A stretch of 64,000 nucleotides of DNA, from positions 54,786 to 118,785 of the forward strand of contig JBGVQN010000009.1 of the NCBI GenBank assembly GCA_045127535.1. The letters run 5' to 3'. The translations under genes and the position numbers were made by a program. Position 1 is the stretch's first letter, and the number at the start of each line of letters is the position of its first letter. This DNA is from Lachnospiraceae bacterium (GTDB lineage Bacteria > Bacillota > Clostridia > Lachnospirales > Lachnospiraceae). Below are positions 2,475 through 44,310 of this stretch, piece by piece. The notes under the pieces are model-generated. The model had not been told where the DNA came from and made no database searches. It worked only from the letters and a program-made list of their open reading frames with translations.

Positions 2475-2591
2475 TGCTTTCCAGCCTCTGGTCATACCCC
2501 AAGAAATCTCCTTGCCTATTTCAATGAGGGAGATGAAAAGGGTTTTCAAGTCTGAATGGTTCCATAAATTTGGATCTTACGGAGGAAAAAT

Positions 2592-5913: not shown

Positions 5914-6004
5914 ATTTCAATCAATCTACAGGAGTATACAATTATGAGATTGACAACAAACAGACTGATTTTAAGGTAATCTGGTGACAGTTAGGAGGAC
6001 ACAT

Positions 6005-6559: not shown

Positions 6560-6638
6560 ATATTGATTCATCTGAAACCATACCGGAAATACAGATACAA
6601 CAATGCTGCTGAAAAATCACACAGAAAAGAGGTTTTTT

Positions 6639-7130: not shown

Positions 7131-7139
7131 CAGATGGAT

Positions 7140-7574: not shown

Positions 7575-7618
7575 TAGAATCCTCCATTGTGAAGCGGCTG
7601 ACCGCTTCTTTTTTATTT

Positions 7619-7708
7619 AGGGAATTGCGAAATATAGTTATTGTAATGAATGCTTTAAAAACACAAATACTTCCCAAAGCTGATACGGACGCTGGTTTCG
7701 CAATGTCC
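7619..7708 (-). repeat. MITE-like palindromic intergenic repeat, minimal copy
   Basis: The termini are GGAATTGCGAA ... GGTTTCGCAATGTCC. The internal ACTTCCCAAAGCTGATA matches the TIR of the full copies. Confidence 0.6.
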
Positions 7709-7734
7709 TATTGGGATGTGCAGCAAGAGTAGTA

Positions 7735-26469: not shown

Positions 26470-27459
26470 TTATTTTGCGGGAATTAACAAAATTTGTCCT
26501 ACATTAATGACAGTGCTTTTTAATCCATTTAATTCCATAATTTCCGTATATCTATTTTCAGCACCCAGATGTTTCTTTGCGATACTGGATAATGTGTCGC
26601 CAGATTTAACAGTATACTCTTTATGATTTGGAACATAAGAGTAGTATTTGCCATTCTGATAAGAAGTATAAGCATAACCACATTCTTCGCCCGCCCAAAC
26701 AATTTTGAACCATCCGTTTGAAGTAATTTCTAATACTTCGACTGCAGTTCCTTTTGTAATAGTTGCATAAGCTTTATAGTTAGTTCCTGCACCGCTACGG
26801 ATAGCCATTGAGTCTAATGCAAATGCAGAACCAATTCCTTTTCCAACATAAGATGTATTGCCGTCACTGCTTGCTGTTAAATTAAACCCCTCAGTAATAC
26901 CTTTAATATAGGCTTGTGCAATTTTATTTTTATTGTTTTGATACCAAGTCACATCATCCTTATCAGAAATAAAACATGTCTCAAATAATCCATGAGATAC
27001 ACCTTGCGCTCTGACACGTTCCTGCACCAATAAACCACCACTATATTGTCTTTGAGATACTACAATTCCGTCCCATGCTTTACAGCTTCCAATTGCATAC
27101 ATATTTTTCAAAATTGCATCTTCTACGCTGTGTCCTGTTTCTGACTGACTGATATAAAACATAGACCCCTTCATCTTACCATCACCAGTTGTATCGTTTG
27201 TGGTTGAAGAATTAAAATGGATCTCACCAACATATGTATATGGAGTAAAATCATAAGAACCACCATTTTTTAAAAATGTATAGTAGTTTTTTGATGTATC
27301 AGCAATAGTACAATTAATACCTGCGGTATCAGCAGCAGACTTAATTAATTTCACAAGTTCTCTTGTCAAATCAGCCTCTTTATATCCATTGCCGCATGCG
27401 CCAGAATCGCCGTTTCCATGTCCAGCAATTAACAATAATTTAAACTCTTTCTTTTCCAT
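26470..27459 (-). CDS. N-acetylmuramoyl-L-alanine amidase (Amidase_3) with SH3b and C-terminal LysM domains
   Basis: The amidase_3 N-terminus reads LLIAGHGNGDSGACGNGYKEADL. The LysM at the C-terminus reads YTVKSGDTLSSIAKKHLG. An RBS, GGAGGACG, lies 5 nt before the start at MEKKEF. Confidence 0.75.
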   Translation of the reverse strand: MEKKEFKLLLIAGHGNGDSGACGNGYKEADLTRELVKLIKSAADTAGINCTIADTSKNYYTFLKNGGSYDFTPYTYVGEIHFNSSTTNDTTGDGKMKGSMFYISQSETGHSVEDAILKNMYAIGSCKAWDGIVVSQRQYSGGLLVQERVRAQGVSHGLFETCFISDKDDVTWYQNNKNKIAQAYIKGITEGFNLTASSDGNTSYVGKGIGSAFALDSMAIRSGAGTNYKAYATITKGTAVEVLEITSNGWFKIVWAGEECGYAYTSYQNGKYYSYVPNHKEYTVKSGDTLSSIAKKHLGAENRYTEIMELNGLKSTVINVGQILLIPAK

Positions 27460-27474
27460 ATAATCGTCCTCCAT

Positions 27475-27939
27475 TTATCGTAATTTTTTAGGAAATTCTA
27501 AAATAACATAGCCAAATACTTTATAATAAGGAACCGGAAGCTCCTTAAAAATATAATAATTTATAGCATCCGCTATAAAAATACCAATAACCGATAAAAA
27601 ACACCATATAATACTAAATGGCAAACAAATAACTCCCATAAAGTTCAGTGGAATATTTGAATAGTCCCACATTTGTGGTATAGAAGTGTGTAATGCTAAT
27701 AATCCTATAATCAACTCAAAAAATGTGATTATTATAGACCCTATTATTGACTGAATTATCAAATCTGTTTCCCATGATATTTTGTTATTAATTTTATCTA
27801 GTATTACAATTGCTAATCCACCACACAATCCCATTAAAGGAAACGTATATTGCCTCCACAATAACTCTATCAACATGTATCCAAAAAATCCAACCGAAAA
27901 CAAAGTAATAAATTTTACTATTTTTCGTCTAATTTTCAT
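27475..27939 (-). CDS. small 4-TM membrane protein (holin-like?), translationally coupled to amidase
   Basis: A 154-aa hydrophobic protein. Its stop abuts the amidase RBS. The region is low-GC. Confidence 0.45.
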   Translation of the reverse strand: MKIRRKIVKFITLFSVGFFGYMLIELLWRQYTFPLMGLCGGLAIVILDKINNKISWETDLIIQSIIGSIIITFFELIIGLLALHTSIPQMWDYSNIPLNFMGVICLPFSIIWCFLSVIGIFIADAINYYIFKELPVPYYKVFGYVILEFPKKLR

Positions 27940-28254
27940 TTATACCTCCAACAATTCTTTTAGAATTTCAGACTGATATTCTTCTGGGATTTCACATCCG
28001 TATTCAATAATTGCAATCTCTTCGATTGTTGCTAATGATTCTACATATGCTTTTAACGAATTAAAATATGTAACATGATATGTTTTGAATGCTGTTGCAG
28101 TATTCAAGATTGTATTGATATCTTGTGCTGAGTAATAACGGCATAACTCACCATCTGCATGATATGGAATTTCGGTCTGACCAGAGGCAGCCAAAGAAGA
28201 AAGAGTGATCAAATTCAATTGATTCATATAAAATATCGTATTCAGATTTTTCAA
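27940..28254 (-). CDS. hypothetical 104-aa protein, first gene of the low-GC cassette
   Basis: Its stop codon overlaps the ATG of the 4-TM gene. No recognisable motifs. Confidence 0.4.
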   Translation of the reverse strand: MKNLNTIFYMNQLNLITLSSLAASGQTEIPYHADGELCRYYSAQDINTILNTATAFKTYHVTYFNSLKAYVESLATIEEIAIIEYGCEIPEEYQSEILKELLEV

Positions 28255-28911: not shown

Positions 28912-30459
28912 ATGAAAAATATTTATGTTCGTGCCGGAATGTCCCCTTTTGAAAGTTTTCCAGCAGAAAAAATACTGAATGAAAATTCAATTGGAACCAA
29001 TGTCGGCAATTTTTTATATTTATTTGGAACTCTGCGCAATCTTGTGCAGGAAGATACCATAGTGACCCCAAGCTATTACAAGTTAAACCACACCAAAGAA
29101 GAAATTGACCGGATCAATCAGGAGTGTGACTGCTTCCTGATCCCTCTGGCAGATGCATTCCGTCCGGATTTTCGTGGAGAGATGCGTGCATTGACCAGAC
29201 TGGTAGAGCAGTTAACCATTCCCTGTGTGGTAACTGGTGTGGGATTATGCGCTCCGTATGATGCATCTCCTGACCAGTCTTATCCTTTTGACGAGGATGC
29301 AAAAGCATTTGTAAAAGCGGTACTAAATAAATCAGCCAAGATAGGTGTCCGTGGAGAAATTACATCTGCCTATCTGTCTCATCTGGGGTTCAGAGAGGGC
29401 ATTGACCATACACCCATTGGCTGTCCGTCTTTGTATATGAATGGACCTAAGCTGCAGATCAGGGAGGCAAATATCACGCCTGATTCATTTGTATGCTACA
29501 ATACCACTTTCACGACTCCGGACAATGTGCATGAGTTTGTACACAGAAGCCTTGCACAGTTTCATGATACCCATTTTGTGCCCCAGGTACGCAATGAATT
29601 AAAGCTTTTGTATACAGGAGCGCCGTATATCTGTAATGCAAATCCATTGTATCCTACCAAAATCACAGATGAAGCATACCGGGGCAATCAGTCCAGATTT
29701 TTCCTGAATGTACCTACCTGGATCGAATATATGAAGGGAGCGGATTTCTGTTTTGGTACCAGACTCCACGGTAATGTGGCTGCCATGCTGGCAGGAACCC
29801 CAAGCATTCTGCTGGCAAAGGATGCCCGTGTCAGAGAACTGGCTGAGTATCACGATATGACCCGTTTCCCTGTGGAACAGATTGATGAGAAGACAGATAT
29901 CTGGGATCTGATTGCAAAGGCAGATTTCCACCAGGCAGAAAAGTGCCAGTATGCCAACTATACCCATTTCATTGATTTTCTGGAGGAAAATCATTTGTCA
30001 CCTTACCGCCAGGATCCTGCACATATGGAGGAACTTCCTTTTGAAGAGCGGATGAAGCATGTGAAGTTAGAACCCCCTGTGGAATCCATTGCCACCTGTA
30101 GCTTGGAGGAAATGGCAAAGCGCTGGGGCACATACTGGCCTTTGCAGGAGCAGCGTGTAAATCGGTTGGAAACTGAGGTGAAAACCCTTAAAAAAGAGAA
30201 AAAAGAATTCCAGGGTGAAGCAAAGAAACTTCAACAGGAAAAGACTGTTCTGCAGGCAGAAAATAAAGAACTCCAAAAAGAAACGTCTGCTTTGCAGGCA
30301 GAGAAGAAAACGCTGGCAAAAGAGAAAAAACGTCTTCAGTCTGAATTGGAAAAACCTCTGCTGATTCAGCTGGGTAAGCGGATAGAAAAGAGGTGCCCAT
30401 CTATTGGAACACTTCTTAGAAAAGTGAAAAAGATGGTTTGCCATGGCAAAAAAGAATAA
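28912..30459 (+). CDS. polysaccharide pyruvyl transferase-like protein with C-terminal coiled-coil repeat tail
   Basis: A CFGTRLHGNVAAM motif is shared with WcaK and CsaB-type pyruvyl transferases. About 110 C-terminal residues are Lys/Glu/Gln-rich heptad-like repeats, such as EKKEFQGEAKKLQQEKTVLQAENKELQKE. Confidence 0.5.
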   Translation: MKNIYVRAGMSPFESFPAEKILNENSIGTNVGNFLYLFGTLRNLVQEDTIVTPSYYKLNHTKEEIDRINQECDCFLIPLADAFRPDFRGEMRALTRLVEQLTIPCVVTGVGLCAPYDASPDQSYPFDEDAKAFVKAVLNKSAKIGVRGEITSAYLSHLGFREGIDHTPIGCPSLYMNGPKLQIREANITPDSFVCYNTTFTTPDNVHEFVHRSLAQFHDTHFVPQVRNELKLLYTGAPYICNANPLYPTKITDEAYRGNQSRFFLNVPTWIEYMKGADFCFGTRLHGNVAAMLAGTPSILLAKDARVRELAEYHDMTRFPVEQIDEKTDIWDLIAKADFHQAEKCQYANYTHFIDFLEENHLSPYRQDPAHMEELPFEERMKHVKLEPPVESIATCSLEEMAKRWGTYWPLQEQRVNRLETEVKTLKKEKKEFQGEAKKLQQEKTVLQAENKELQKETSALQAEKKTLAKEKKRLQSELEKPLLIQLGKRIEKRCPSIGTLLRKVKKMVCHGKKE

Positions 30460-30605
30460 CGCACAGGTGGGTGACGGAGAACGTGTTTTTCTAAATGTCT
30501 GCTTTACTTCTGCGCAAGTTTGCGATAGAATGAAATGCACAGATGATTCATGGCAATAGAATGTTTTTCTATTGTTTGTAAACAAAGGGATTCAAAGGGG
30601 ACATT

Positions 30606-33600
30606 TTGAAAGAACGGATTATACAAATCGCAAAAGGAATAGTTTCATATGATGCACCTCAGTTCCGCATTTATCCGGAACAGCTTACTGGAGAACTGGC
30701 AGTAAATCAGTCAGTAAAGAAGGAAGTGGAGATACGCACTTGTAATGGCAAGCCTGTAAAAGGGGTTGCCTGTTCTGATTGTCCTCATGTACGGATCAAA
30801 GGAGACACCTTTCAGGGATATGTAAACCGGGTGACGGTAGAAATAGATGCTGCAGGACTGGAAGCAGGAGAGATACTGGCAGGAGAACTGGTATTGCTTA
30901 CCGATGGTGGAGAAAATTACATTCCTTACCGGTATCAGGTGTGCAGTGAGGAAAAGGCATTGGAAGAAGGAGAGAATACACCAGAGGGCAATGGCTGTAA
31001 GGATACTGAAAAAACAGAGTCTGATGCTGATGATGGGCACTGCAATAATATAGAAGAAAATGGGACTGCCAGAGAGCAGGAAAATCAAACAGAGCAGAAA
31101 GAGCAGCCAATACCGGAATCTCCAAATATGCAAAGAGAGTCTGCTCATAAAACTGCGGAACTGATGAAGCTGATGCTACACTGTCTGACAGAGCATTACA
31201 GCCAGGATGCCATGGAAGACCTGGAACTGAATCTGATGGTCTGGCAGGATGAGCCAGAGCCTTTTCTCACAGAAGCCCAAAACAACCTGCTGCAGGTATT
31301 GGTCATGTACCATACAGGCTGTAGGGAGGAAGGTATTAACCTGTATGAGCAGATCAGGGAGCAGATTTATGCTGACCGGGAAAATACCTCCTGGGCTTAT
31401 CTGCTGGGTTTATATTTAGAAGACAGACTGTTGCCTGAGGAAGAACGCGGCGCCCAGGTACATCAGCTGCAGCAGTATAGGCAACAGTATAAAGATGATT
31501 TCAGTCTGCTGCTTTTATCAGAAATGGACTTAAATCGTCTGTTTCATCCGAAAACAGCAGCAGAAGAATTGTGTGCTGCTTATGAAAATGGATATCACAG
31601 TCCGTTTTTACTCTGGAGGTTGTTTCAGATTTTAGAAGAAGCACCTCAGATCATGGATTTACACAGCCGGCCTATGATACAGGCTTTTGGATCTGTCATT
31701 CGTTATGGCATGGTACCGGTGCATATGCTGAGAGAAATCCTCAGACAGATGAAACCGGAAACAGAACCAGCTTGTGCCCCGGTACTCCTTCGGGCATTTT
31801 TGCGCCTGATGGAGAATGAAGCATATGAAGGCCCGGATTTGTTAAATGCTGCAGTACAGCTTATGCTGCAGCTTCAGTATGCAGGAACACAGTATTTCCC
31901 TCTGTATCATCAGGCCGCTTGTGCCAATATGCATTCAGAAGAACTGTTTGTGTATTATCTGAATTCCGTGCCAGGAGGATACAGAAAGCCCATTGCCAGA
32001 CCTGTGGTTCTGTATTATACTTATGGAGATACGCTTTCAGAACCTTTGAGAGAGCTTTTATATACCAATGTGCAGCTTTTTTACAGCGATGAAGAACGCA
32101 TCTATACCGGGTACCGCAACCGGATAGAGCGGTTTATGATAGATCACCTGCTGCAGGGGCAGATAAATGAAAATCTGCTGTTTTTGTATACCACTTTGCT
32201 GCATCCGGAGATGCTGGATGAGCGGGCGGCAGCTGCATTAACGGATATACTCTCTTTAGCGCATATTTCTGAGGAAAAGAGTGGGGCAGAAACTGTAGTG
32301 GTACGGTATCCTCTGCTGGAACAGGAGTGGAGCTATCCTTTGGCCAAAGGAGAAGGAAATGTGCCTGTATGGAGTCAGGATGCAGAGATCATCTGTCTGG
32401 ATGCTGCAGGAAATCCATTGGAGGATCAGGGGGGAAAGCGCTCCCTGTGGATGGAACACCAGGAGCTGGAAAAGCGGTGCAGACAGTTATATCCTTCTCA
32501 TATCAGATTTCAGCTGACTGATTTGAAAAAGCTGTTGGAGTATGGTGTGGATACAAAGGAACAGTTAGACCAGGTAATCGGACTGGCCAATGCATTGCCA
32601 GTGTGTTGGGAGGCTGTGTGCCGGATCGTATCTATGGTCATCGCATACTGCAATGTACATCCGGAGGATACTGCATATGATGGTGTATTGGTAGGGGCTT
32701 CCTGGGAAGATCTAGGAAAAGAGGAACAGAGGCAGGTATTTGACCTGCTGCTGCGCCGGGGATATGTAAAAGAGGCAGAAAGCCGCATTCGCAGCTATGG
32801 CTGGAAGGAACTGTCGGATGAAAGTCTGTCTGTATTTTTAAGACTGCGCAGCGAAAAGTCCGCAAAGACAGATAACTGGCAGACGGCTATGTGTTATGAG
32901 CTGTATGTCAGGGGCAGCAGAGAAAGCTGGCTTTTAAACGAGCTTTGTCTGCATTACAGCAGCAGCCAGGAAAAAATGCTGGCATTGCTGCAGGATTGTC
33001 TGCAGTCAGGAATGCAGGCAGAAAATCATCAGACAGACTGCCGTGCAGACAGGTTAGGAGAACGTCTCCTGACACAAAGTATGTTCACCGGAAAGTGGGA
33101 AAAGCTGCCGGAAATTATGAACGGGTACATAGATGGAAATGGACAGGATGGCCTTTTAATGAGCAGCTATCTGGTGATTCGCTGTCAGGTTTATTATATG
33201 ACTGGAACAGCAGATTCGGTATTGGAAGGGTGGTTTTCCTATGCATCTGTTCAAGAGCCGTTTCAGGGAAAACTGCCGGAGATCTGCTGTATGGCATTGT
33301 TAAAGTGGTACGGAGAGAAAGGGCAGCTTACAAATCAGGAGCAGCAGCTTTGTATTCCATTGTTAGAGGGACTGCTGCAAAGAAACAGATGCTACAGTTT
33401 CTTCCATAGATATGCAGAGCTGGTATCTATGCCATCTGTTTTGGAAGGAAAAACGATATTAGAATATCATGGAGCAGCAAACCGGCAGGTCATGCTGGTT
33501 TACCAAAGAGACAAACTGGAAACAGATGAAAACGTAATTTTGCTGAAAGAGCAGTATCCAGGTGTATATTGTGCGGCCATCTCCCTGTTCGCAGGAGAAG

Positions 33601-33827
33601 AACTGCATTATCGTCTGCTGGAGGACGGGGAATATCAGGCAGTATGTTTTACACTGGAAGAACCCTTTGCCGGAAAAGATGAAGGATATGTAAGCCTGAA
33701 TCAGATCATTTCAGCATATCAAAGAAACGACTGGCAGAAGGTACAGGATGCAGTGCGCACAAGGGAACTTGGCAGATGCATGCTGGACCGGCTGTTCCCA
33801 TTAAATTATATTTCAGAGGAAAGGTAG
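30606..33827 (+). CDS. large (1073 aa) uncharacterised protein: N-terminal beta-rich domain, acidic linker, long alpha-helical body
   Basis: A continuous ORF starting at TTG. No recognisable catalytic motif. Its stop abuts the next start. Confidence 0.55.
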   Translation: MKERIIQIAKGIVSYDAPQFRIYPEQLTGELAVNQSVKKEVEIRTCNGKPVKGVACSDCPHVRIKGDTFQGYVNRVTVEIDAAGLEAGEILAGELVLLTDGGENYIPYRYQVCSEEKALEEGENTPEGNGCKDTEKTESDADDGHCNNIEENGTAREQENQTEQKEQPIPESPNMQRESAHKTAELMKLMLHCLTEHYSQDAMEDLELNLMVWQDEPEPFLTEAQNNLLQVLVMYHTGCREEGINLYEQIREQIYADRENTSWAYLLGLYLEDRLLPEEERGAQVHQLQQYRQQYKDDFSLLLLSEMDLNRLFHPKTAAEELCAAYENGYHSPFLLWRLFQILEEAPQIMDLHSRPMIQAFGSVIRYGMVPVHMLREILRQMKPETEPACAPVLLRAFLRLMENEAYEGPDLLNAAVQLMLQLQYAGTQYFPLYHQAACANMHSEELFVYYLNSVPGGYRKPIARPVVLYYTYGDTLSEPLRELLYTNVQLFYSDEERIYTGYRNRIERFMIDHLLQGQINENLLFLYTTLLHPEMLDERAAAALTDILSLAHISEEKSGAETVVVRYPLLEQEWSYPLAKGEGNVPVWSQDAEIICLDAAGNPLEDQGGKRSLWMEHQELEKRCRQLYPSHIRFQLTDLKKLLEYGVDTKEQLDQVIGLANALPVCWEAVCRIVSMVIAYCNVHPEDTAYDGVLVGASWEDLGKEEQRQVFDLLLRRGYVKEAESRIRSYGWKELSDESLSVFLRLRSEKSAKTDNWQTAMCYELYVRGSRESWLLNELCLHYSSSQEKMLALLQDCLQSGMQAENHQTDCRADRLGERLLTQSMFTGKWEKLPEIMNGYIDGNGQDGLLMSSYLVIRCQVYYMTGTADSVLEGWFSYASVQEPFQGKLPEICCMALLKWYGEKGQLTNQEQQLCIPLLEGLLQRNRCYSFFHRYAELVSMPSVLEGKTILEYHGAANRQVMLVYQRDKLETDENVILLKEQYPGVYCAAISLFAGEELHYRLLEDGEYQAVCFTLEEPFAGKDEGYVSLNQIISAYQRNDWQKVQDAVRTRELGRCMLDRLFPLNYISEER

Positions 33828-35117
33828 TTGGTACAGAGGATGAATGATGCAGATGGTTTGATAATTGGATATGATTTATGCCCGGATTTTGTACGCATCA
33901 GCTGTTACTGTCCCGGCAAAGATGAGCCGGAAGACTTTTCCTTTGATGAAGAGGGATTAAAACAATCCATTGCTACCCTGCTCTGCAAAAAAAGGGGAGC
34001 AGATGAGTGGCTGATTGGAGAAGAAGCCCTGCAGAATGCCCTGACCGGCAGCGGAATTATGGTAGATAACCTTTTGGGGATGATTCAGCGCAAGGGAGAA
34101 ACTGTTTTAGAGGGCGTTCACTATACTGCTGACAGGCTGCTGGATATTTTTCTGCGGAAAACCATTCAGATGGTTCTGGATACCTATCATCAGTCAAGGC
34201 TTGTAAAAATATTTTTTACTATTCCCAAAATGGAACCGGCATGGATGGAAACCATTTATCAGGCAGCAGCAGGCATGGGGCTGGAAAGCAGCCAGGTGCG
34301 GATTCTCTGCCATGCAGACAGCTTTGGCTGTTATATTGCCAACCATTCCAGAGGCGGACTCTCTGGCATTACAGCCTTGTTTGACCTGACCAAAATGGGT
34401 CTGGATTATTATGAAATCAGATGCAACAAATCTGTAAAGCCTCAGCAACTCCTGGTACAGCATGAGACGTTAGAGGAACGGTTCAGCCTGGATATATTAA
34501 AAGAAAAGACAGGAGTCCGTATGGCTGACTCCATCCTCACCTCCTGTGCAGACAGGCTGTTTCACGGAAAAGTGGTAACACAGGTATTTCTGGCAGGAGA
34601 AGGGCTGGCACACTGCCAGGAGTGGTCAGAAAAATTCCTTGCTACCATCTGTAAACAGAGAAAGGTCTATTACCACCACAACCTGTTTGCCCAAGGTGCT
34701 CTGGCAGCAGCTCTTGCATCCTTAGATGCAGGGGGGAATCCGCCTTATCTGTTGCTTTGCGAAGGCAGGATCCCTTCTGACATTTCTATGGAAGTGGTAC
34801 AGCAAAACACCAGAAAAAAACTCGTACTCTGTCAGGGTGGAAGTGACTGGTACGAAGCTGGCGCTACAGTAGAACTGATACCGGATATTTGCGACAGTCT
34901 CCAGTTACAGATCTGCAGATTGACAGACAGACGTACCAGAACCTGTTCTATTTCTCTGGAAGCGCTGCCAAAGCGTCCAGAACGTACCACCCGCCTGGAA
35001 GTAAAGATTTATTTCCGCTCGTCAGAAGAAATGACAGTGCGGGTAAAAGATCTTGGTTTTGGAGAGCTGTATCCGGCTACAGACACTATAATAGAAGAAA
35101 AAGTTTATATCGGCTAA
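33828..35117 (+). CDS. Hsp70/actin-fold (ASKHA) ATPase-domain protein lacking a substrate-binding domain (YegD-like)
   Basis: DGLIIGYDLCPDFVRIS matches Hsp70 phosphate-1. TIPKMEPAWMETIYQAAAGMGLESSQVRILCHADSFGCYIA parallels Hsp70 TVPAYFNDAQRQATKDAG...IINEPTAAALAY. The connect-1 and adenosine motifs ALFDLTKMGLDY and VFLAGEGLA are also present. The protein is only 429 aa. Confidence 0.55.
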   Translation: MVQRMNDADGLIIGYDLCPDFVRISCYCPGKDEPEDFSFDEEGLKQSIATLLCKKRGADEWLIGEEALQNALTGSGIMVDNLLGMIQRKGETVLEGVHYTADRLLDIFLRKTIQMVLDTYHQSRLVKIFFTIPKMEPAWMETIYQAAAGMGLESSQVRILCHADSFGCYIANHSRGGLSGITALFDLTKMGLDYYEIRCNKSVKPQQLLVQHETLEERFSLDILKEKTGVRMADSILTSCADRLFHGKVVTQVFLAGEGLAHCQEWSEKFLATICKQRKVYYHHNLFAQGALAAALASLDAGGNPPYLLLCEGRIPSDISMEVVQQNTRKKLVLCQGGSDWYEAGATVELIPDICDSLQLQICRLTDRRTRTCSISLEALPKRPERTTRLEVKIYFRSSEEMTVRVKDLGFGELYPATDTIIEEKVYIG

Positions 35118-35187
35118 CGGGTAAAACAATATCCCCCATAATCTGATGCCCACACTCTTGTAAACGTCCGGGAAAGGAGAATGAAAG

Positions 35188-35988
35188 ATGAACCGATATC
35201 TGTTATGCAGAAAAAGAGTGAACAGGCCATATGTAGTAAAGGAGCTTGGACTGCGGATCTATTCTCCGGAGGAACTCTGTTATTTTATTTATCAGAATCT
35301 TCCCTTGATTGAAAACAGCTTTCTGGATGAGAATTTCTATGAATTTATTGGGCAGGACTGTGGCATGCCGGAGACTGCAAGACAAATGGAGCGATATGCC
35401 AGAGCCAGTCAGTCTCCCTTAGAAGCACTGCGGATTTTATTTTCGGCAGTAGGGTATTATACAGAAGAAGAATGCAGTCGGTTTTGCAAACGTCTGATGC
35501 AGCAGCTGCACAACTCTCCTGACCGGATTTATGAAGAAAAAGCAGATCTGCTGGTTCAGCTTGGGCGGTATCAGGAAGCTGTGCAGTATTATGAAAAGAT
35601 AAGCAGCGCCAGACATGGACAGTCTGCTGCACCGGTGTTGGAAAAAATGGCAGGACTGTATTTGAGAATGGGACAGCAGAAAAAGGCAATGGAGCATTTG
35701 ATTTCCTTATGGAAGCTGACCAAAGAAAAGAAAGCTGCCAGGGCACTGTGCTTTGGCTGCCTGTTTACAGGACAGGAAGTGAGCGAATTGGGGGCAGATA
35801 TCCCAGAGGCATTGCAGCAGCAGTACAGTCAGGAGTATGAGCTCATCCGTCAGGAAGTGGAAAACCAGGTTGGAGAAGGTCCAGTAGAGACAGTTATGAC
35901 AGATCATTTTCAGGGGCGGAGAGAAGAACTGGAGCAGTATTTTTACCTAGAAAAGCAGGCATACCGGAAAATGATGGGGATTGCATAA
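35188..35988 (+). CDS. TPR-like helical repeat protein
   Basis: A 266-aa protein with repeated LxxxGxYxEAxxYYEK-like helix pairs. An RBS, GGAGA, precedes the ATG. Confidence 0.5.
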   Translation: MNRYLLCRKRVNRPYVVKELGLRIYSPEELCYFIYQNLPLIENSFLDENFYEFIGQDCGMPETARQMERYARASQSPLEALRILFSAVGYYTEEECSRFCKRLMQQLHNSPDRIYEEKADLLVQLGRYQEAVQYYEKISSARHGQSAAPVLEKMAGLYLRMGQQKKAMEHLISLWKLTKEKKAARALCFGCLFTGQEVSELGADIPEALQQQYSQEYELIRQEVENQVGEGPVETVMTDHFQGRREELEQYFYLEKQAYRKMMGIA

Positions 35989-35996
35989 AAACCTGC

Positions 35997-36025
35997 TTGA
36001 CAAAAACCATATAAATAGCTATGAT
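35997..36025 (+). promoter_or_regulatory. sigma-A-type promoter for valS leader
   Basis: TTGACA, a 17-nt spacer, then TATGAT. Confidence 0.5.
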
Positions 36026-36029
36026 GAAA

Positions 36030-36305
36030 ACAGTCACATCTAAGGAAAGGTGATGAAGCAGAGGAGTACTGTTTGGAGGCGGACAGAGAGGTGGCCGGAT
36101 GTTGAGAGGCCATTACGTACAGAAGGATAGGAAGGTAGCTGCTGAACTGGATTTTTGAACGGCAAGACTCATTAGAGAATCCCGGTTAGTCCCCGTTATC
36201 GGTCACAAGGGAATCGGAGCAGCAGCTCCCGTTCTGAAATGAAGGTGGTACCGTGCATATGCGCCCTTTATGGAGATCATTCCATAAAGGGCTTTTTTAT
36301 TTTAT
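36030..36305 (+). ncRNA. T-box riboswitch leader (tRNA-Val-responsive) with terminator
   Basis: The T-box sequence AATGAAGGTGGTACCGTG is at 36238-36255. A terminator, GCGCCCTTTATGGA...TCCATAAAGGGC followed by TTTTTTATTTT, comes next. The position upstream of valS fits. Confidence 0.7.
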
Positions 36306-36491: not shown

Positions 36492-39143
36492 ATGGAGGAT
36501 ATGATGAAAGAATTAGAAAAAACATACAGCCCTGCTGATATAGAGGAGCGTCTGTATGAAAAGTGGTTGGACAAAAAGTATTTTCACGCAGAAGTAGATA
36601 GAAGCAAGAAGCCATTTACCATTGTAATGCCGCCGCCAAATGTAACCGGTCAGCTGCACATGGGTCATGCATTGGACAACACCATGCAGGACATTCTCTG
36701 CCGTTATAAGAGAATGCAGGGGTATAACGTATTATGGCAGCCAGGTACAGACCATGCAGCCATTGCCACAGAGGTAAAGGTCATTGACAAGCTGAAAAAA
36801 GAAGGCATTGATAAGAATGACATTGGACGTGAGAAGTTTTTAGAGCATGCCTGGGAGTGGAAGCGTGAGTACGGCGGAAGAATCATCAACCAGTTAAAGA
36901 AGTTAGGTTCTTCTGCAGACTGGGACAGAGAGCGTTTTACCATGGACGAGGGCTGCTCCAAGGCAGTAGAGGAAGTCTTTATCCGTCTGTATGAAAAAGG
37001 CTGGATCTACAAAGGCTCCCGTATCGTAAACTGGTGTCCTGTATGTAAGACCTCCATTTCTGATGCAGAGGTAGAGCATACAGAGCAGGCAGGCCATTTC
37101 TGGCATATTAAGTACCCGATCGTAGGGGAGGAAGGCAGATTCGTAGAGATCGCCACCACCAGACCGGAGACCATGCTTGGAGATACTGCAGTGGCAGTCA
37201 ATCCGGAGGATGACCGTTACAAGGATATCGTAGGCAAGATGCTGCTGCTGCCTCTGGTCAACAAGGAGATCCCGGTAGTGGCAGATCCATATGTAGACAA
37301 AGAGTTTGGAACCGGTTGTGTCAAGATCACCCCAGCCCATGATCCTAACGACTTTGAAGTAGGAAAGCGTCACAGCCTGCCGGAGATCAACATCATGAAT
37401 GATGATGCCACCATCAACAATCACGGCGGTAAATATGCAGGCATGGATCGTTACGAGGCAAGAAAGCTGATCGTACAGGAATTAGATGAGCTGGGCTTAC
37501 TGGTAAAGATCGAAGACCACGTACACAATGTAGGTACCCATGACCGTTGTAAGACCACCATTGAGCCACTGATCAAGCAGCAGTGGTTTGTAAAGATGGA
37601 TGAGATGATCAAGCCTGCTGTAGAGGCAGTAAAGTCCGGTGAGATCAAGCTGCTGCCGGAGCGCATGGACCGTACTTACTTTAACTGGACAGACAACATC
37701 CGTGACTGGTGTATTTCCAGACAGCTGTGGTGGGGACACAGGATCCCGGCTTACTATTGTAAGGATTGTGGTGAAATGGTTGTGTCCAGAGACGCAGTGA
37801 CGGTATGCCCTAAGTGCGGCAGCGTACACATGGAGCAGGATCCGGATACATTGGACACCTGGTTTTCTTCTGCACTGTGGCCATTCTCCACATTGGGCTG
37901 GCCGGAGCAGACAGAGGATCTGGATTACTTCTATCCGACAGACGTACTGGTAACCGGCTATGATATTATCTTCTTCTGGGTCATCCGTATGATCTTCTCC
38001 GGCTATGAGCAGACCGGTAAGGCGCCGTTCCATACGGTACTGTTCCATGGTCTGGTCAGAGACTCTCAGGGACGTAAGATGAGTAAGTCTCTGGGCAATG
38101 GTATCGATCCATTAGAGGTCATTGATAAATATGGTGCAGATGCCCTGCGTCTCACCCTGATTACCGGTAATGCACCAGGTAATGACATGCGTTTCTACTG
38201 GGAGAGAGTAGAAGCATCCCGTAACTTTGCCAACAAGCTGTGGAACGCATCCCGTTTCATTATGATGAACATGGAAAAGGCATCCTCAGACAATGTCACT
38301 CTGGCAGATCTGACCAACGCAGACAAGTGGATTCTGTCCAAGGCAAACCGTCTTGCCAAGGAAGTGACTGAAAATATGGACAAGTATGAAATGGGTATTG
38401 CTGTACAAAAGGTTTACGATTTTGTATGGGAAGAATTCTGCGACTGGTATATCGAGATGGTAAAGCCACGTCTGTGGAATGCAGAGGACAAGACCCAGGC
38501 AGCTGCCATCTGGACATTAAAGACTGTCCTGATCCAGTCCTTAAAGCTGCTGCACCCATTCATTCCATTTATTACAGAGGAGATCTTCTGCAACCTGCAG
38601 GATGCAGAGGAATCCATTATGATCTCTGAATGGCCGCAGTTCCAGAATGCATGGGACTTCGCCCAGGAGGAAAATGCAGTAGAGACCATCAAGGAAGCAG
38701 TACGCAGCATCCGTGCAGTACGTCTGTCCATGAATGTACCACCAAGCAAAAAGGCTACCATCTATGTAGTCAGCGAGCAGGACAAGGTACGTGAGATCTT
38801 TGAGACCTCCAAGGTATTCTTTGCACAGCTTGGTTCTGCAAGTGAGGTACTGGTACAGGCTGATAAGACCGGCATCGGGGAAGATGCAGTCTCTGCTGTG
38901 ACAGCAGATGCAGTGCTGTATATGCCTCTGGCAGAGCTGGTTGACATCTCCAAGGAGATCGAGCGCCTGCAGAAGGAAGCAGAAAAGCTGACCAAGGAGC
39001 TGGCACGTTCCAAGGGCATGTTAAGCAATGAGAAGTTTATCAGCAAGGCACCTGCTGCCAAGATCGCAGAGGAACAGGAGAAGCTGGCACGCTACGAAGC
39101 AATGATGGCCCAGGTACAGGAGAGACTGGAGGCACTGCAGTAA
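36492..39143 (+). CDS. valS: valine--tRNA ligase
   Basis: The class I HIGH motif PPNVTGQLHMGHA, KMSKS, and a C-terminal coiled coil. Alternative starts lie at 36501 and 36504. Confidence 0.9.
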   Translation: MEDMMKELEKTYSPADIEERLYEKWLDKKYFHAEVDRSKKPFTIVMPPPNVTGQLHMGHALDNTMQDILCRYKRMQGYNVLWQPGTDHAAIATEVKVIDKLKKEGIDKNDIGREKFLEHAWEWKREYGGRIINQLKKLGSSADWDRERFTMDEGCSKAVEEVFIRLYEKGWIYKGSRIVNWCPVCKTSISDAEVEHTEQAGHFWHIKYPIVGEEGRFVEIATTRPETMLGDTAVAVNPEDDRYKDIVGKMLLLPLVNKEIPVVADPYVDKEFGTGCVKITPAHDPNDFEVGKRHSLPEINIMNDDATINNHGGKYAGMDRYEARKLIVQELDELGLLVKIEDHVHNVGTHDRCKTTIEPLIKQQWFVKMDEMIKPAVEAVKSGEIKLLPERMDRTYFNWTDNIRDWCISRQLWWGHRIPAYYCKDCGEMVVSRDAVTVCPKCGSVHMEQDPDTLDTWFSSALWPFSTLGWPEQTEDLDYFYPTDVLVTGYDIIFFWVIRMIFSGYEQTGKAPFHTVLFHGLVRDSQGRKMSKSLGNGIDPLEVIDKYGADALRLTLITGNAPGNDMRFYWERVEASRNFANKLWNASRFIMMNMEKASSDNVTLADLTNADKWILSKANRLAKEVTENMDKYEMGIAVQKVYDFVWEEFCDWYIEMVKPRLWNAEDKTQAAAIWTLKTVLIQSLKLLHPFIPFITEEIFCNLQDAEESIMISEWPQFQNAWDFAQEENAVETIKEAVRSIRAVRLSMNVPPSKKATIYVVSEQDKVREIFETSKVFFAQLGSASEVLVQADKTGIGEDAVSAVTADAVLYMPLAELVDISKEIERLQKEAEKLTKELARSKGMLSNEKFISKAPAAKIAEEQEKLARYEAMMAQVQERLEALQ

Positions 39144-39633: not shown

Positions 39634-39904
39634 GGTGTTTTGCAATCGACTATTCTCATATTTGAACAATAACGAAAGTCTGCTACGTATCAGCTTTGTG
39701 AAGTGCCTGTCAGAAAATGTTTTCTAAGCAGGCTCTTAAAAACGCCGGCACTTTAAATTTTGCACCGTAGGTGCAAAATTTATTAGTACCGCTGGGTTTT
39801 TACCGAAGCGAGAGCATGCAAACGTATCATAAATGATACGTCGCGTGCAAACATTTTCTGACAGGCACTTCACAAAGCGTCCGGTAACAAGTTGTGCAAT
39901 TGTC
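39634..39904 (+). repeat. MITE-like palindromic intergenic repeat, full copy
   Basis: It shares the core with 8806-9026. The central hairpin is TTTTGCACCGTAGGTGCAAAA. There is an extra CGTATCAT-aa-ATGATACG hairpin. The TIR reads CTTTGTGAAGTGCCTGTCAGAAAATGTTTT. Confidence 0.8.
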
Positions 39905-39930
39905 TATTTCAGATTAGTTGGAAGGAGAAG

Positions 39931-40908
39931 GTTTTGGAGAATAAGAAGACAAATTTTTATAGTATTATACATGAGATCTGCAGGGAGCAGGGGATCGTCT
40001 GCAGGGATTATGCAGATGGATGGGCGTTTGAATTGTCCAGAGAGGGGAAACACAGTTTTATTTTTGGCTATCAGTTTGGGCTGAATCTTTCTGCAGTGCA
40101 GCAGATCTGCAATGACAAGGGGGCAGCCAGTGAGGTGATGGCGGCTAAGGGGATCGCCCATGTGCATCATCAGGCTTTTATGTGTCCTCCTATGCAGAAG
40201 TTTGTTGGAGGAGATGGGTGCTTTCAGGAGATTTTGGATCTGTTTGAGGCACAGGGACGTGACCTGGTGGTGAAGGATAATGAGGGCACCGGAGGCAATC
40301 TGGTGTTTCATGTGACCAGCCGCAAGGCACTGGAGCTGGCAGCTTTTGAGATCTTTTCTTCCTGTAACTCCATTGCTTTGTGCCCTTATTATGATATTTT
40401 GCAGGAGTATCGGGTGGTGCTGTTGGATGGAGAGGTCAAGGTGATCTTCTCCAAGCTCCGTCAGGGGATTACAGGAGATGGTACCTCCAGCCTGCTTGCA
40501 TTGTATCAGCAGTATCTGGCAGAGGAAGGCGCAAAAGAGGATGGTGCGGCAAAGAGCGCTGCGATCGAGCAGGCAGCAGCTGAAAGCGGATTTTTACTGC
40601 AGGATCTGAGCCGGATTTCTGAGAAAGGAAAGTTTTATCCCTTCCAGTGGAAGCACAACTTAGGACAGGGAGCAGGCGCGCAGCTCATTGTACCAGAGGA
40701 CGTACCGGAAGCAGTGGCGCTGGCCAGACAGACAGCAGAGGCGCTGCAGGTGCGGTTTGGTTCCTTTGATGTGATACGGACAGCAGAGGGGATGTTGGTA
40801 TTAGAGGTGAACACCGGCGTGATGATGGAAAATCTGGCTGGTATGAGTGAGAAAAATTACAGGATGGTAAAGTCTGTTTATACGGAGGCCATTGAAAAAA
40901 TGCTCTGA
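39931..40908 (+). CDS. ATP-grasp domain protein
   Basis: TTG start, with the RBS GGAAGGAGAAGG 5 nt upstream. The ATP-grasp assignment is a tentative by-eye guess from the Gly-rich segment KDNEGTGGNLV and the overall size and order. Confidence 0.4.
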   Translation, partial: VLENKKTNFYSIIHEICREQGIVCRDYADGWAFELSREGKHSFIFGYQFGLNLSAVQQICNDKGAASEVMAAKGIAHVHHQAFMCPPMQKFVGGDGCFQEILDLFEAQGRDLVVKDNEGTGGNLVFHVTSRKALELAAFEIFSSCNSIALCPYYDILQEYRVVLLDGEVKVIFSKLRQGITGDGTSSLLALYQQYLAEEGAKEDGAAKSAAIEQAAAESGFLLQDLSRISEKGKFYPFQWKHNLGQGAGAQLIVPEDVPEAVALARQTAEALQVRFGSFDVIRTAEGMLVLEVNTGVMMENLAGMSEKNYRMVKSVYTEAIEKML

Positions 40909-41106: not shown

Positions 41107-41256
41107 ATGATTAATTTCGAAGAAGAATTGGCAAAATTCCGCCCCAGCGAAGAAATCAGTCAGAATAAAGACGAGGCAGTACACGATAAATCCACTGATT
41201 TATCCGATATTATGATGGAAATTTTAAAGCAGATGAATGAAACAACCAAAAGTTGA
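41107..41256 (+). CDS. possible 49-aa acidic small protein
   Basis: The RBS GGAGG lies 6 nt before the ATG. The product reads MINFEEELAKFRPSEEISQNKDEAVHDKSTDLSDIMMEILKQMNETTKS. Confidence 0.3.
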   Translation: MINFEEELAKFRPSEEISQNKDEAVHDKSTDLSDIMMEILKQMNETTKS

Positions 41257-41279
41257 TTCATACAATAGGGGTGAAAAGC

Positions 41280-42767
41280 ATGAATTGTTGCAATTGTGAT
41301 GTGAGTTTAACAAAGAATCACATCTGTCCAAACTGCGGTACAGATTACAGCTTGTACGTGCGGATACTGGAATTATCTAACGAGTATTATAATGACGGTC
41401 TCATGAAAGCCCGTGCCAGGGATTTATCCGGTGCTGCAGAAAAATTACGAACCAGTCTGCAGTTGAATAAGCGAAATGTACCGGCCAGAAATCTTCTTGG
41501 CCTTATTTACTATGAAATGGGAGATGCCGACCTGGCATTGAAGGAATGGAATGTCAGCCGTATGCTGAAATTCCGCAGCAATCCTGCGGACAAGTATGTA
41601 GAAGAACTGCTGTCAGACACAGAGTCTGTTAACAGTTATAATAATTCCATCTGCAAGTTTAATCTGGCTCTGCAGAATGTGCAGGAGGAAAATAACGTTG
41701 ATCTGGCCATTGTCCAGCTGAAAAAAGTGATCAACATCAATCCAAGACTGTTAAAAGCCTATCAGTTGCTGGCACTGCTTTACATCAAAACAGGCCAGTA
41801 TGCCAAGGCACTGGCGGTGTTAAACAGATGTCTGGAAGTGGACAGAGGCAATATCTGTGCCAGAGCATATATCAATGAGTTAAAGACCAGAAAGCTGGTA
41901 CAGGATAAAAAAGAACGCCTGACTGCAGGAGAAAAGGAACGGGCAGACGTAGTTGTTCCTACTAAAATACGGGATGTGGGTACTTATGTTTCCAATGGAT
42001 TGTATATTTTGCTGGGTGTTGTTCTGGCGATTGGAATCTTCTGGTATGCCATTGTGCCGGAGATCCGTACCGAGTATGAAAGCGTAAGCCGCTATACGGC
42101 CAGTGAATACGAAGGAAAAATTGATGACCTGAACAGAGAAGTGACAGAACTGACGGATCAGGTGGAAGAATTGAACGACACCATCGAAGAGATGGAAAAG
42201 GATTCCCAAGAAGCCAGGGCAGATTATGAGGCGAATGCAAGCAATTCAGAAGGCATTATTGCAGACTATAACAAGCTGCTGGATATTTTTGCATTGTATG
42301 TGAATCATGATTATATGAATGTAGAGACAGCTTTTGATGGACTGTCTCTGCGGGATTCTGAGGAAACTGCTTATCAGGATATGTATCGCCAGGTGCGGGA
42401 CAACATTCAGAATGAAATGCCTACCCAGCTGTTGGTATGGGCAAATTATTACCGGGACAGCGGGGATTATCAGCATGCGGCGGAATATTATGATCAGGTG
42501 CTTACCTATCAGCAGGATGCCAATACCTTATATTGGGCTGGTGTAAGTTATCAGAATCTGAATAACAAGGATAAAGCTGTGAGCTATTATACCATGGTGG
42601 CGGAGAATTATGTGGAAACAGAGTTTTTCGAACCAGCTGTGGAGCAGATTGCGGCTTTACAGGGCGGACATGCAGATACTTTGAAGGCCCAGTATAGACA
42701 GCTGTGGCAGGAGAAACAGGCAGCGGCTCAGGGGGATGAGCAGGGCGGAGAGAATCAGAATCCGTAA
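41280..42767 (+). CDS. TPR-repeat protein with N-terminal zinc-ribbon, single TM helix and coiled coil
   Basis: The zinc ribbon reads CCNCDVSLTKNHICPNCG. TPR-like helices flank a TM segment reading LYILLGVVLAIGIFWYAIV. An acidic coiled coil is also present. Confidence 0.55.
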   Translation: MNCCNCDVSLTKNHICPNCGTDYSLYVRILELSNEYYNDGLMKARARDLSGAAEKLRTSLQLNKRNVPARNLLGLIYYEMGDADLALKEWNVSRMLKFRSNPADKYVEELLSDTESVNSYNNSICKFNLALQNVQEENNVDLAIVQLKKVININPRLLKAYQLLALLYIKTGQYAKALAVLNRCLEVDRGNICARAYINELKTRKLVQDKKERLTAGEKERADVVVPTKIRDVGTYVSNGLYILLGVVLAIGIFWYAIVPEIRTEYESVSRYTASEYEGKIDDLNREVTELTDQVEELNDTIEEMEKDSQEARADYEANASNSEGIIADYNKLLDIFALYVNHDYMNVETAFDGLSLRDSEETAYQDMYRQVRDNIQNEMPTQLLVWANYYRDSGDYQHAAEYYDQVLTYQQDANTLYWAGVSYQNLNNKDKAVSYYTMVAENYVETEFFEPAVEQIAALQGGHADTLKAQYRQLWQEKQAAAQGDEQGGENQNP

Positions 42768-43305
42768 GGTTGTATAAAGAATAAATGTGAGAAAGACTGT
42801 TACGAACAGGGAAAATGACCTGTAGTAGCAGTCTTTTTTTGTGTACAAAAATTAGTTCTTTGAAAAGAGTTATATACAATGGAGATATATAATGTAGCAT
42901 GGTGGAGAACTGTTCTTATAAACAATTTTAACATTATTTACTATATAATATCCAATGATTTTTAATTAATAACGGAAATAAGCCATGGTTTATTGACGTG
43001 TCGGAATATAAATGATAAAATATAAAAAAATGTAATAAAAAGGGAATTTGTATAAAAATAACTTAAAATTCTGACATATATTGACAAAATTGTGCGACAA
43101 ATAAACATTAACATTGAGAAATGCAAACAATAGATGGATATAGAATACTTTCTAGATATTACTTATATTCATGATTCCTGAAATACCAGAACTTCATTGA
43201 AAACGGAACTCAAAGAATATAATGAGTATGTAATTATAAGTTTTACAAATAACGTATCGTAATGTTCAGTCTTTCAAAATAAAAAATACAAAAGGAGTGT
43301 GCGGA

Positions 43306-44295
43306 ATGAATCAATGGCAGGAATGGATCAAGAAAAACGCAGCATTATTGCTTCACATTACAGTGGGAGTTACAGCAAGTATACTAGCAGCCATTCTATA
43401 CGAACAGCTGACCCCATGTCACCTATTCATCAACATAGTATTCATCATCATACTGCTTTACAGTGCAGTGAACTTCGTACTGACCCCTCAAAAGAAACAC
43501 TGGAAATGGAAGTGTTTTGTACTCATAGCTGTTATGATCGGAATGAACCGATTATATGAGTATCAGACGATCCTTGAGCTGTGTCCTTTTTTAGAGGATT
43601 ATTCACCAGCCGCATTAGGCAGCTGTGCCATACTGATCATCGTCAGTATCATCACTACGATCAAATTGCTGCAATATATAGATTGGAGTACTCTCCTAAC
43701 CCCAGACGAACCCCGGTCTCCCAATAAAACCAGAATAGATGGCAGATGGATCTTCATTTTCGTAGGTCTGATCCTTGTGATGACAATAGTAATGGTAGGA
43801 AGTGTCTGGGTCAGTAAGCATGATGGCGTCTCATACAAGGAAGTGCTAAAAGATGTTATAATACTTGTGGCTGTCATATATGCCGGCACCATGGGCATAC
43901 TGCTTTGTATCAAATATACAGGATCAAAAAACAAGACCAAGATGGTGGTAAAGCCTGTAAATGCAGAAAATCAAGCAGAAGAAGATCTGAATCCTGGAGC
44001 AATCAAAAGTCCCAATCCGGAATATGTCTATCCGGATGAAACAGATGAGGACTGGAAGGAAATCAAATCAGCTGCAAAAAGCAAGGTCATCGCAATTGTA
44101 AAATACTTATTTGTGGATCTGATCCTGGGATTTTTCCTGTCCATAGTCACCTATATGAAATTTATCCCGGAATTTCTTCTGGAAATATATGAACTGATAT
44201 TTGAAAATGAAGAGAGCGACGATACTGTAGAGGGTGAGACTGCAGCTGCGACAGCAGAAAGCGAACCATTGGCATTTCAGGAAACAGAAGAGTAA
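43306..44295 (+). CDS. polytopic membrane protein with acidic C-terminal tail, function unknown
   Basis: The RBS AAAGGAG lies 8 nt before the ATG. There are about 6 TM helices, and the C-terminus reads ESDDTVEGETAAATAESEPLAFQETEE. Confidence 0.5.
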   Translation: MNQWQEWIKKNAALLLHITVGVTASILAAILYEQLTPCHLFINIVFIIILLYSAVNFVLTPQKKHWKWKCFVLIAVMIGMNRLYEYQTILELCPFLEDYSPAALGSCAILIIVSIITTIKLLQYIDWSTLLTPDEPRSPNKTRIDGRWIFIFVGLILVMTIVMVGSVWVSKHDGVSYKEVLKDVIILVAVIYAGTMGILLCIKYTGSKNKTKMVVKPVNAENQAEEDLNPGAIKSPNPEYVYPDETDEDWKEIKSAAKSKVIAIVKYLFVDLILGFFLSIVTYMKFIPEFLLEIYELIFENEESDDTVEGETAAATAESEPLAFQETEE

Positions 44296-44310
44296 GGGGG
44301 GAGGAATGGT

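Follow-up and report, generated by a model that had tools for sequence, protein, structure and literature searches.

Organization of the locus

A stretch of 64,000 nucleotides from a Lachnospiraceae bacterium (GenBank assembly GCA_045127535.1, contig JBGVQN010000009.1, positions 54,786 to 118,785 of the forward strand), hereafter the window, carries four consecutive open reading frames (ORFs), all on the plus strand and all present where an initial annotation, made from the sequence alone, had placed them. The last three encode, in order, a large protein of the Pfam family DUF5717, a protein of the family DUF5716 with an Hsp70-like fold, and a smaller protein with tetratricopeptide repeats (TPRs), termed here the third protein. 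This trio is an atypical Hsp70 system, widespread in the Lachnospiraceae and previously catalogued only as domains of unknown function (DUFs). The first of the four genes belongs to the pyruvyl-transferase family and is considered below with the flanking DNA; coordinates are collected in Table 1.

The coordinates agree with the tight linkage described initially, in that the DUF5717 stop codon (33825-33827) directly abuts the TTG at 33828, and the third-protein gene begins 70 nt past the DUF5716 stop. Close homologues start with MNDADG, so that translation of DUF5716 may in truth begin at the ATG at 33840, which would alter nothing else.

DUF5716 as a divergent Hsp70 without a lid

The DUF5716 protein is a clear member of its Pfam family (PF18980; 266.5 bits against a gathering cut-off of 34.7; DUF5716_C match, E 3e-79), and its AlphaFold2 model is confident (predicted local distance difference test score, pLDDT, 90.4; predicted template modelling score, pTM, 0.88). 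In the model an actin-fold nucleotide-binding domain (NBD), for which the nearest structures are those of Hsp70s, is followed by a hydrophobic linker and a sandwich resembling the β-subdomain of the Hsp70 substrate-binding domain (SBDβ). The chain stops 2 residues after the final β strand, leaving no counterpart of the helical SBDα lid. When the model was used as a Foldseek query, the top 50 matches were all two-domain Hsp70 chains aligned end to end, including a lid-truncated Geobacillus DnaK of 509 residues, aligned over 510 columns (E 1.9e-19); the best TM-scores (0.63) were obtained with docked states of DnaK. On the evidence of the model, the domain order of DUF5716 is thus NBD, linker and SBDβ, without a helical lid, and the initial label 'SBD-less' is therefore incorrect: residues 307-427, held to lack a peptide-binding domain, form a β sandwich, and the whole protein aligns with chains made of an NBD and SBDβ.

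At the sequence level the relationship is more distant. The DUF5716 family profile matches DnaK sequences (E 3.5e-6), and within it LPKRPERTTRLEVKIYFRSSEEMTVRVKDLG is collinear with the DnaK segment spanning β6-β8 of SBDβ, the correspondence being individually insignificant. An hhalign comparison of the C-terminal domain with Escherichia coli DnaK selects the correct region (DnaK 455-495) at an insignificant probability of 1.6%. A search of PDB sequences with the single DUF5716 sequence returned noise only, and one with a profile of the C-terminal domain alone gave no Hsp70 match.

The nucleotide site has been remodelled in a consistent manner across the 35 family sequences compared. The position of DnaK Asp8 is D16, kept in all 35, that of Asp194 is D186, kept in 31, and the glycines of the adenosine site (G257, G259, G290-A291) are invariant. 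Thr11-Thr12-Asn13 of DnaK is replaced by x-D-Y, Lys70 by Tyr, Leu or Phe, Glu171 by His162 in 34 of the 35 sequences, and the GGG-Thr199 phosphate-2 loop by TxxG, such that the DnaK-type set of catalytic and phosphate-binding residues (D8, T11-T12, K70, E171, D194-GGG-T199) is not retained as a whole. The Hsp70-type 'phosphate-1' motif reported initially survives in part: its Asp is invariant, but the Thr-Thr-Asn loop is lost, as are Lys70 and the phosphate-2 loop. Judged from these residues, DUF5716 probably binds nucleotide, with impaired or non-canonical hydrolysis, as in the eukaryotic Hsp70 Ssz1.

The third protein and its fusions to DUF5716

The assignment of the third protein as TPR-like holds. 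Pfam gives weak single TPR matches (TPR_8, E 1e-6), and the family profile matches TPR proteins among PDB sequences down to E 1e-36. The closest natural proteins in the PDB are HOP/STI1 (2e-9), TOM70 (5e-8), FKBP51 (1e-6) and CHIP (4e-6), a similarity which may simply follow from nearness to the general TPR consensus. Two to three TPR motifs lie between a conserved N-terminal domain and a C-terminal helical region (Table 1). Homologous third genes are present in the loci designated L001 and L002 and, as described below, in 78 of the 80 loci collected from other genomes; the start of the third gene overlaps the DUF5716 stop by 4 nt in 33 of the 80, the remaining gaps being mostly below 30 nt.

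Natural fusions of DUF5716 to the third protein, of 708-745 residues, make up 8 of the 150 best DUF5716 representatives (P0197, P0200, P0214, P0223, P0235, P0237, P0246 and P0255), which are 8 independent representative clusters and place such fusions in at least 8 lineages. In the fusion sequences read, the third protein lies directly C-terminal to the DUF5716 part; in the two tested by hhalign, it was recovered at full length with the third-protein profile (P0197, probability 99.5%, E 6e-23; P0235, 99.1%, E 4e-19). Because it is fused C-terminal to DUF5716, the third protein, on sequence grounds, holds the position occupied by the lid in canonical Hsp70s. In a further DUF5716 representative, P0209 (625 residues), the place of the third protein is taken by a repetitive tail that is rich in proline and alanine and basic at its end.

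Any contact between the two would probably differ from that of TPR co-chaperones with a carboxylate clamp. None of the DUF5716 C-termini examined has an EEVD-type ending, and alignment inspection places an apparently conserved Asp at the clamp-Asn position of the third protein (KADxLF, compared with KxxGNxxF); a carboxylate clamp is therefore unlikely.

DUF5717, a large putative scaffold protein

The first protein of the trio was initially described as having no recognisable motifs. It matches DUF5717_N (PF18984; E 7e-96, 322.3 bits) and DUF5717 (PF18983; E 9e-38, 130.7 bits), in each case far above the cut-offs of 25. Its AlphaFold2 model (pLDDT 80.6, pTM 0.50) supports the N-terminal β domain, here predicted to be a sandwich of the MSP/ASH (PapD-like) type, and the acidic disordered linker of that description; the 'helical body' proposed to follow is not uniformly helical, in that two β domains (residues 551-614 and 949-1011) are set within its TPR-like repeats. 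The linker, of 36-74 residues, is acidic and disordered in the window's own clade, where DUF5717 proteins have 1039-1115 residues. The wider family, most members of which have ~1190 residues, has a conserved structured module at this position, and the window protein matches the Pfam DUF5717_N profile only from profile position 299. A search of PDB sequences with a DUF5717 profile gave nothing.

Comparison of the extreme C termini from 79 loci reveals a conserved motif, an acidic residue, any residue and [LIMY]F, after which the chain runs on for 2-6 mostly hydrophobic residues, e.g. EELFPLM, ERLFEYL and EYFPLS, and RLFPLNYISEER in the window (33800-33824). We infer that this motif may dock onto the TPR protein or SBDβ. 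No signal peptide or membrane segment was noted in any of the three proteins by inspection of sequences and models, made without a dedicated predictor. Two loci show irregular DUF5717 genes: in L070 (Clostridium sp. Marseille-P2415) the full gene is preceded by an additional, partial DUF5717-like ORF (1875-3398; E 1e-159), and in L020 the gene (4083-7964) is split into two ORFs, possibly by a frameshift or as a pseudogene.

Conservation and inheritance of the trio

One genome per species was searched with a DUF5716 motif, and the best 80 loci were fetched and scanned with profiles of the three proteins. A confirmed DUF5716 relative is present in at least 575 species genomes, essentially all of Lachnospiraceae. 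Almost all of the best 80 carriers are so labelled, among them the cultured Lacrimispora, Hungatella, Cuneatibacter, Fusibacillus, Lientehia and Hominifimenecus. In 78 of the 80 loci, well above what chance would give, DUF5717, DUF5716 and a protein of ~270 residues follow one another in this order on one strand, the other two loci being interrupted by contig ends; the trio is kept even where members have only 23-26% identity (L002 and L091), and each fetched locus appears to have one copy. The proposal of a linked module pairing an Hsp70 fold with a TPR protein, co-conserved in other genomes, is upheld by these counts. Searched exhaustively with a profile, 1.84 billion representative proteins gave 707 clusters (50% identity) at E<=1e-30 and some 1300 weaker matches (E from 1e-30 to 1e-3).

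Nor do profile searches assign the proteins to a described pathway, which had been named as the other check on the proposal. Matches are confined to the Pfam DUF families: NCBIfam, PADLOC and PHROGs gave no DUF5717 or DUF5716 match, and the PADLOC 2.0 defence models returned only coiled-coil or TPR noise for the other two proteins. NCBI names the relatives 'DUF5717 family protein' or 'hypothetical protein' only. Literature searches for DUF5716, DUF5717, PF18980, PF18983, PF18984, IPR043770 or the combination of Hsp70, TPR and Lachnospiraceae found no relevant study, and the module proteins are therefore catalogued but uncharacterised.

Co-inheritance was assessed using all-against-all identity matrices for the 27 genomes that also have valS nearby, since identities to the window alone are saturated and their correlation uninformative. 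The ValS matrix correlates with those of DUF5716 (Spearman 0.75, a value reached in 0 of 999 permutations in a Mantel test), DUF5717 (0.86) and the third protein (0.70), and the matrices of the three module proteins correlate with one another (0.80-0.87). Judged from these sequence comparisons, the trio is vertically inherited, while evolving much faster than ValS (median pairwise identities of 44%, 29% and 30% for its three proteins, compared with 76%). Consistent with this conclusion, base composition at 30-36 kb of the window (GC 0.45-0.47) is no different from that of the housekeeping genes flanking it, and no plasmid match for the module was found.

Four human-faecal records deposited as 'UNVERIFIED: Bacteriophage sp.' match DUF5716 (MT835486.1, MT835719, MT835988 and MT837634). 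The one examined, MT835486 (L091), consists of Lachnospiraceae chromosome with rarA, the trio and a split valS; phage carriage was rejected for this record, which probably represents bacterial sequence that entered a virome data set.

Expression signals and flanking genes

The trio appears, from sequence signals, to be its own transcription unit with a vegetative-type promoter-like sequence. In the window a site of the form TTTACT-17-TAGAAT lies upstream of the DUF5717 gene (30503-30531), and an extended -10 element (TGnTAnnnT, typically TGnTAGAAT) is found upstream of this gene in 49 of 78 loci, compared with 17 +/- 4 in shuffled sequences, mostly 38-74 nt before the start. SigE/K-like -10 motifs are unenriched in the same regions (8 observed, 14 expected), and an apparent enrichment of sigF/G-like motifs was rejected as artefactual, having arisen from the TAGAAT box together with the ribosome-binding site (RBS). 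Since valS, on the right, has its own promoter-like site and a T-box leader, the trio appears to be a separate unit with a marked 3' boundary.

The neighbours differ from locus to locus but are of housekeeping type; those that recur among the 80 loci are valS downstream (28), rarA upstream (21), a divergent DUF4364 gene (29), malic enzyme (15) and ispE/ispF (~9). Downstream of valS the window has an ATP-grasp-like ORF with a weak RimK match, where other loci have folC, followed by a TPR protein of 504 residues in which inspection of the sequence shows a cysteine-rich N terminus, a coiled coil and an apparent membrane segment; a comparable TPR protein is encoded downstream in 9 further loci. 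ORFs of 332 and 529 residues past valS have no Pfam match.

The product of the pyruvyl-transferase-family gene was correctly recognised at the outset, with a PS_pyruv_trans domain (PF04230, residues 42-302, E 1e-15) and a coiled-coil tail (~residues 400-490). It belongs to the general PF04230 family only, scoring 22.7 bits against the CsaB equivalog TIGR03609 (cut-off 213.1). The gene precedes the trio only in the window's species and an 86%-identical relative (L003 and L088); it is not at the trio in L001, L002, L089 or L091, nor among the recurrent neighbours of the 80 loci. On this comparison of loci it is a lineage-specific neighbour, outside the module. GC content drops to 0.34-0.38 at 26-30 kb of the window; the gene lies in this stretch (0.38), adjoining a prophage-like lysis cassette (GC 0.34). 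The cassette encodes an endolysin (Amidase_3, SH3_3 and LysM; phrog_2742, E 7e-28), a CmpB-like small membrane protein (phrog_20274, E 8e-25) and a 104-residue fragment with a weak tail-fibre match; its position between tsf and the pyruvyl-transferase gene suggests a remnant insertion.

Table 1. Features of the trio locus and its flanks (nucleotide positions in the window; residues in the encoded protein)
Feature	Nucleotides	Residues	Strand	Remarks
Prophage-like lysis cassette	26470-28254		-	
Pyruvyl-transferase-family gene	28912-30459	515 aa	+	Adjoins module, outside conserved trio
DUF5717 gene	30606-33827	1073 aa	+	TTG start at 30606; RBS AAAGGGGA
MSP/ASH (PapD-like) β sandwich	30663-30944	20-113	+	AlphaFold2 model
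Acidic disordered linker	30954-31124	117-173	+	AlphaFold2 model
TPR-like helical repeats	31125-32252	174-549	+	AlphaFold2 model
Small β domain	32256-32447	551-614	+	AlphaFold2 model
Second helical repeats	32460-33413	619-936	+	AlphaFold2 model
Second inserted β domain	33450-33638	949-1011	+	AlphaFold2 model
C-terminal helical hairpin and conserved tail	33681-33824	1026-1073	+	Tail [DE]x[LIMY]F-x-hydrophobic
DUF5716 gene	33828-35117	429 aa	+	TTG at 33828
Actin-fold NBD	33855-34727	10-300	+	AlphaFold2 model
Hydrophobic linker YLLLCEGR		307-314	+	DUF5716; start of SBDβ region
SBDβ-like sandwich, nine strands	34746-35108	307-427	+	AlphaFold2 model
Third-protein (TPR) gene	35188-35988	266 aa	+	
Conserved N-terminal domain	35188-35472	1-95	+	Motif LLC..R.PY...G..YS.EELCY.IY
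Two to three TPR motifs	35485-35757	~100-190	+	Third protein
C-terminal helical region			+	Third protein; terminal WK.EYR motif
Promoter-like TTGACA-17-TATGAT	35997-36025			Upstream of valS
T-box leader RF00230	36044-36271			101.6 bits; terminator hairpin 36263-36292
valS	36492-39143			Downstream of T-box leader
ORFs downstream of valS	39892-40908, 41253-42767, 43297-45900			

Proposed function and alternatives

The reading that we favour, and to which we give about an even chance of being right, is that the trio forms a dedicated cytoplasmic, vegetatively expressed, Lachnospiraceae-specific complex around a non-canonical Hsp70, working in the manner of Ssz1-Zuo1. DUF5716, with the glycines and aspartates of its Mg2+ and adenosine sites kept, would bind nucleotide and cycle slowly or not at all. 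As a lid-less, hydrolysis-deficient Hsp70, it would be held in a docked, ATP-like, low-affinity state, stabilised by segments of its partners on SBDβ. The arrangement of the genes, the overlap of stop with start codons and the fusions found in nature point to the TPR protein as an obligate partner, situated C-terminal to SBDβ at the position of the missing lid, where it might act as a lid. DUF5717 may be a 120-kDa scaffold or adaptor, the MSP/ASH-like sandwich and TPR-like solenoid of which recruit a client or anchor the complex. All three proteins would reside in one complex, serving one specific process and not general folding.

A bolder version, which we put forward tentatively and consider more likely wrong than right, is that the trio is an obligate-heterotrimer 'split' Hsp70, the first in bacteria, in which a degenerate lid-less Hsp70 is complemented by a separate TPR protein at the lid position, fused to it in some lineages, and by a 120-kDa scaffold with MSP and TPR modules that delivers one specific client or anchors the assembly. 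Were its target, e.g., the ribosome or another large structure of the cell, the trio would be the functional counterpart in bacteria of the ribosome-associated complex of eukaryotes. Such a machine would define a core, lineage-specific cell-biological process of Lachnospiraceae.

Several observations weigh against the proposal of a non-canonical Hsp70 complex. The relation to SBDβ comes mainly from predicted structure, being weak in sequence (the hhalign probability given above), and 0 of 35 DUF5716 family members match the Pfam HSP70 model (PF00012) at E<=1. The loss of Lys70 is no proof of lost ATPase activity, and the near-invariant His162 and invariant Asp234 may serve other chemistry. The third protein has no sequence similarity to the DnaK lid (hhalign against E. 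coli DnaK, probability 0.2%); it was rejected as a homologue of the lid, and 'lid replacement' is therefore to be understood as positional only. Direct evidence that the three proteins bind one another is confined to the fusion of two of their number, examination of the operon turned up neither a J-domain protein nor a nucleotide-exchange factor, and the neighbouring genes do not hint at the process served.

Four other explanations were considered, and all are ranked as less supported than the non-canonical Hsp70 complex. An actin-like cytoskeletal or positioning system, in which DUF5716 polymerises like ParM, MreB, FtsA or PilM and DUF5717 and the TPR protein are adaptors or cargo linkers, is the least unlikely of these. 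A role as a sporulation- or germination-specific assembly factor of the spore-forming Lachnospiraceae, to which we would give somewhat less credence, draws on the presence of sporulation genes a few kb away in some loci (spoIIAA/AB-sigF and spoVA in L002, a GerM-like gene in L001) and on the finding, in 6-7 loci, of SpoIIGA or sigma-factor genes at a distance of 2-4 genes downstream. These genes, however, lie beyond valS and folC in separate units, while the immediate neighbours (valS, rarA, malic enzyme, ispE/F) are of housekeeping type; the conserved element upstream of DUF5717 is, moreover, of the sigma-A type with an extended -10, with neither SigE/K enrichment nor, the artefact aside, a sigF/G signal.

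The rapid evolution of the trio relative to ValS, together with the general architecture of CnuD from type III CoCoNuT systems, which matches that of DUF5716 with DUF5717, could be taken to indicate a conflict or defence module related to CnuD, one of the options left open initially. This appears improbable, in that neither the operon nor the set of recurrent neighbours of the 80 loci includes an McrB GTPase, McrC/DUF2357, a nuclease or another effector, PADLOC gives no match, and in the fetched loci what appear to be single copies sit in conserved housekeeping synteny. Vertical inheritance, GC content equal to that of the flanks, absence from plasmids and the identity of the examined 'phage' record as a mislabelled chromosome fragment likewise disfavour it. 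Least probable of all, and in our view only just worth retaining, is a cell-envelope or surface-polysaccharide assembly module working with the upstream pyruvyl transferase. That gene ends 146 nt before the trio, is read in the same direction and is retained in the 86%-identical relative, but the association is limited to the window's own clade, which contradicts the envelope or spore-surface idea raised at first; the lower-GC setting of the gene next to a prophage remnant, and the lack of any signal peptide or membrane segment noted on inspecting the three proteins, also argue against it.

Significance

In the guts of humans and animals few families are as abundant as the Lachnospiraceae, and the trio, apparently single-copy in the loci examined, is found in at least 575 of their species with no name beyond two Pfam DUF numbers; retention across so many species makes a core function likely. 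The trio can be regarded as a natural experiment in Hsp70 design, in which the lid is gone, a TPR protein is supplied in trans at its position, the catalytic Lys is lost and a giant putative scaffold has been added. Atypical pseudo-Hsp70 complexes have until now been known from eukaryotes (Ssz1, HSPA14) and predicted for some defence systems; if the complex forms as predicted, their range would come to include housekeeping functions in bacteria. It would also be a tractable system, because the trio is carried by cultured strains of Lacrimispora (L. saccharolytica, L. indolis), Hungatella (H. hathewayi, H. effluvii) and Cuneatibacter (C. caecimuris).

Comparison with known systems

DUF5716 shares with DnaK, and also with HscA and HscC, the order of NBD, linker and SBDβ, its predicted domain arrangement being nearest to that of docked DnaK (TMq 0.63). 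It differs in having neither a lid nor a C-terminal tail and in an NBD that is ~85 residues shorter, and the trio operon has no DnaJ or GrpE gene. The third protein resembles the three-TPR domains of HOP/STI1, CHIP, FKBP51 and TOM70 (E 2e-9 to 4e-6) and, like a co-chaperone, is coupled through its gene to an Hsp70-like protein; its conserved N-terminal domain, by contrast, has no counterpart in those proteins. The identity of DUF5717 to MSP/ASH/PapD-like domains, including those of VAP, Hydin, CEP192 and the pilus chaperones, is 8-17%; the DUF5717 version is cytoplasmic and fused to a TPR-like solenoid of ~900 residues, with no FFAT-type ligand known.

HSPA14-MPP11 is the metazoan counterpart of the fungal Ssz1-Zuo1 pair. 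Ssz1 has no lid, binds ATP without hydrolysing it, and has its SBDβ complemented by strands and an LP motif of Zuo1 (PMC7083937). The lid-less DUF5716 with its lost catalytic residues is similar in this regard, the complex being implied in its case by fusions only. The partner in the eukaryotic system is, however, a J-domain protein, whereas those in the trio are a TPR protein and a giant with MSP and TPR modules, and the trio is bacterial and restricted to one family; with identities of 10-15%, the relationship is therefore a parallel, not orthology. CnuD of the type III CoCoNuT (McrBC-like) systems is predicted to combine an Hsp70-like NBD and SBD with HEAT repeats and to have degenerate ATPase motifs (PMC11090510). 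Compared by described architecture, it resembles the trio in its Hsp70-like NBD/SBD with degenerate ATPase motifs and in its long helical repeats, but the trio lacks McrB, McrC and a nuclease and is chromosomal, vertically inherited and set in a housekeeping context. By analogy, the closest precedent for the trio would thus be Ssz1-Zuo1, and its closest predicted bacterial analogue CnuD.

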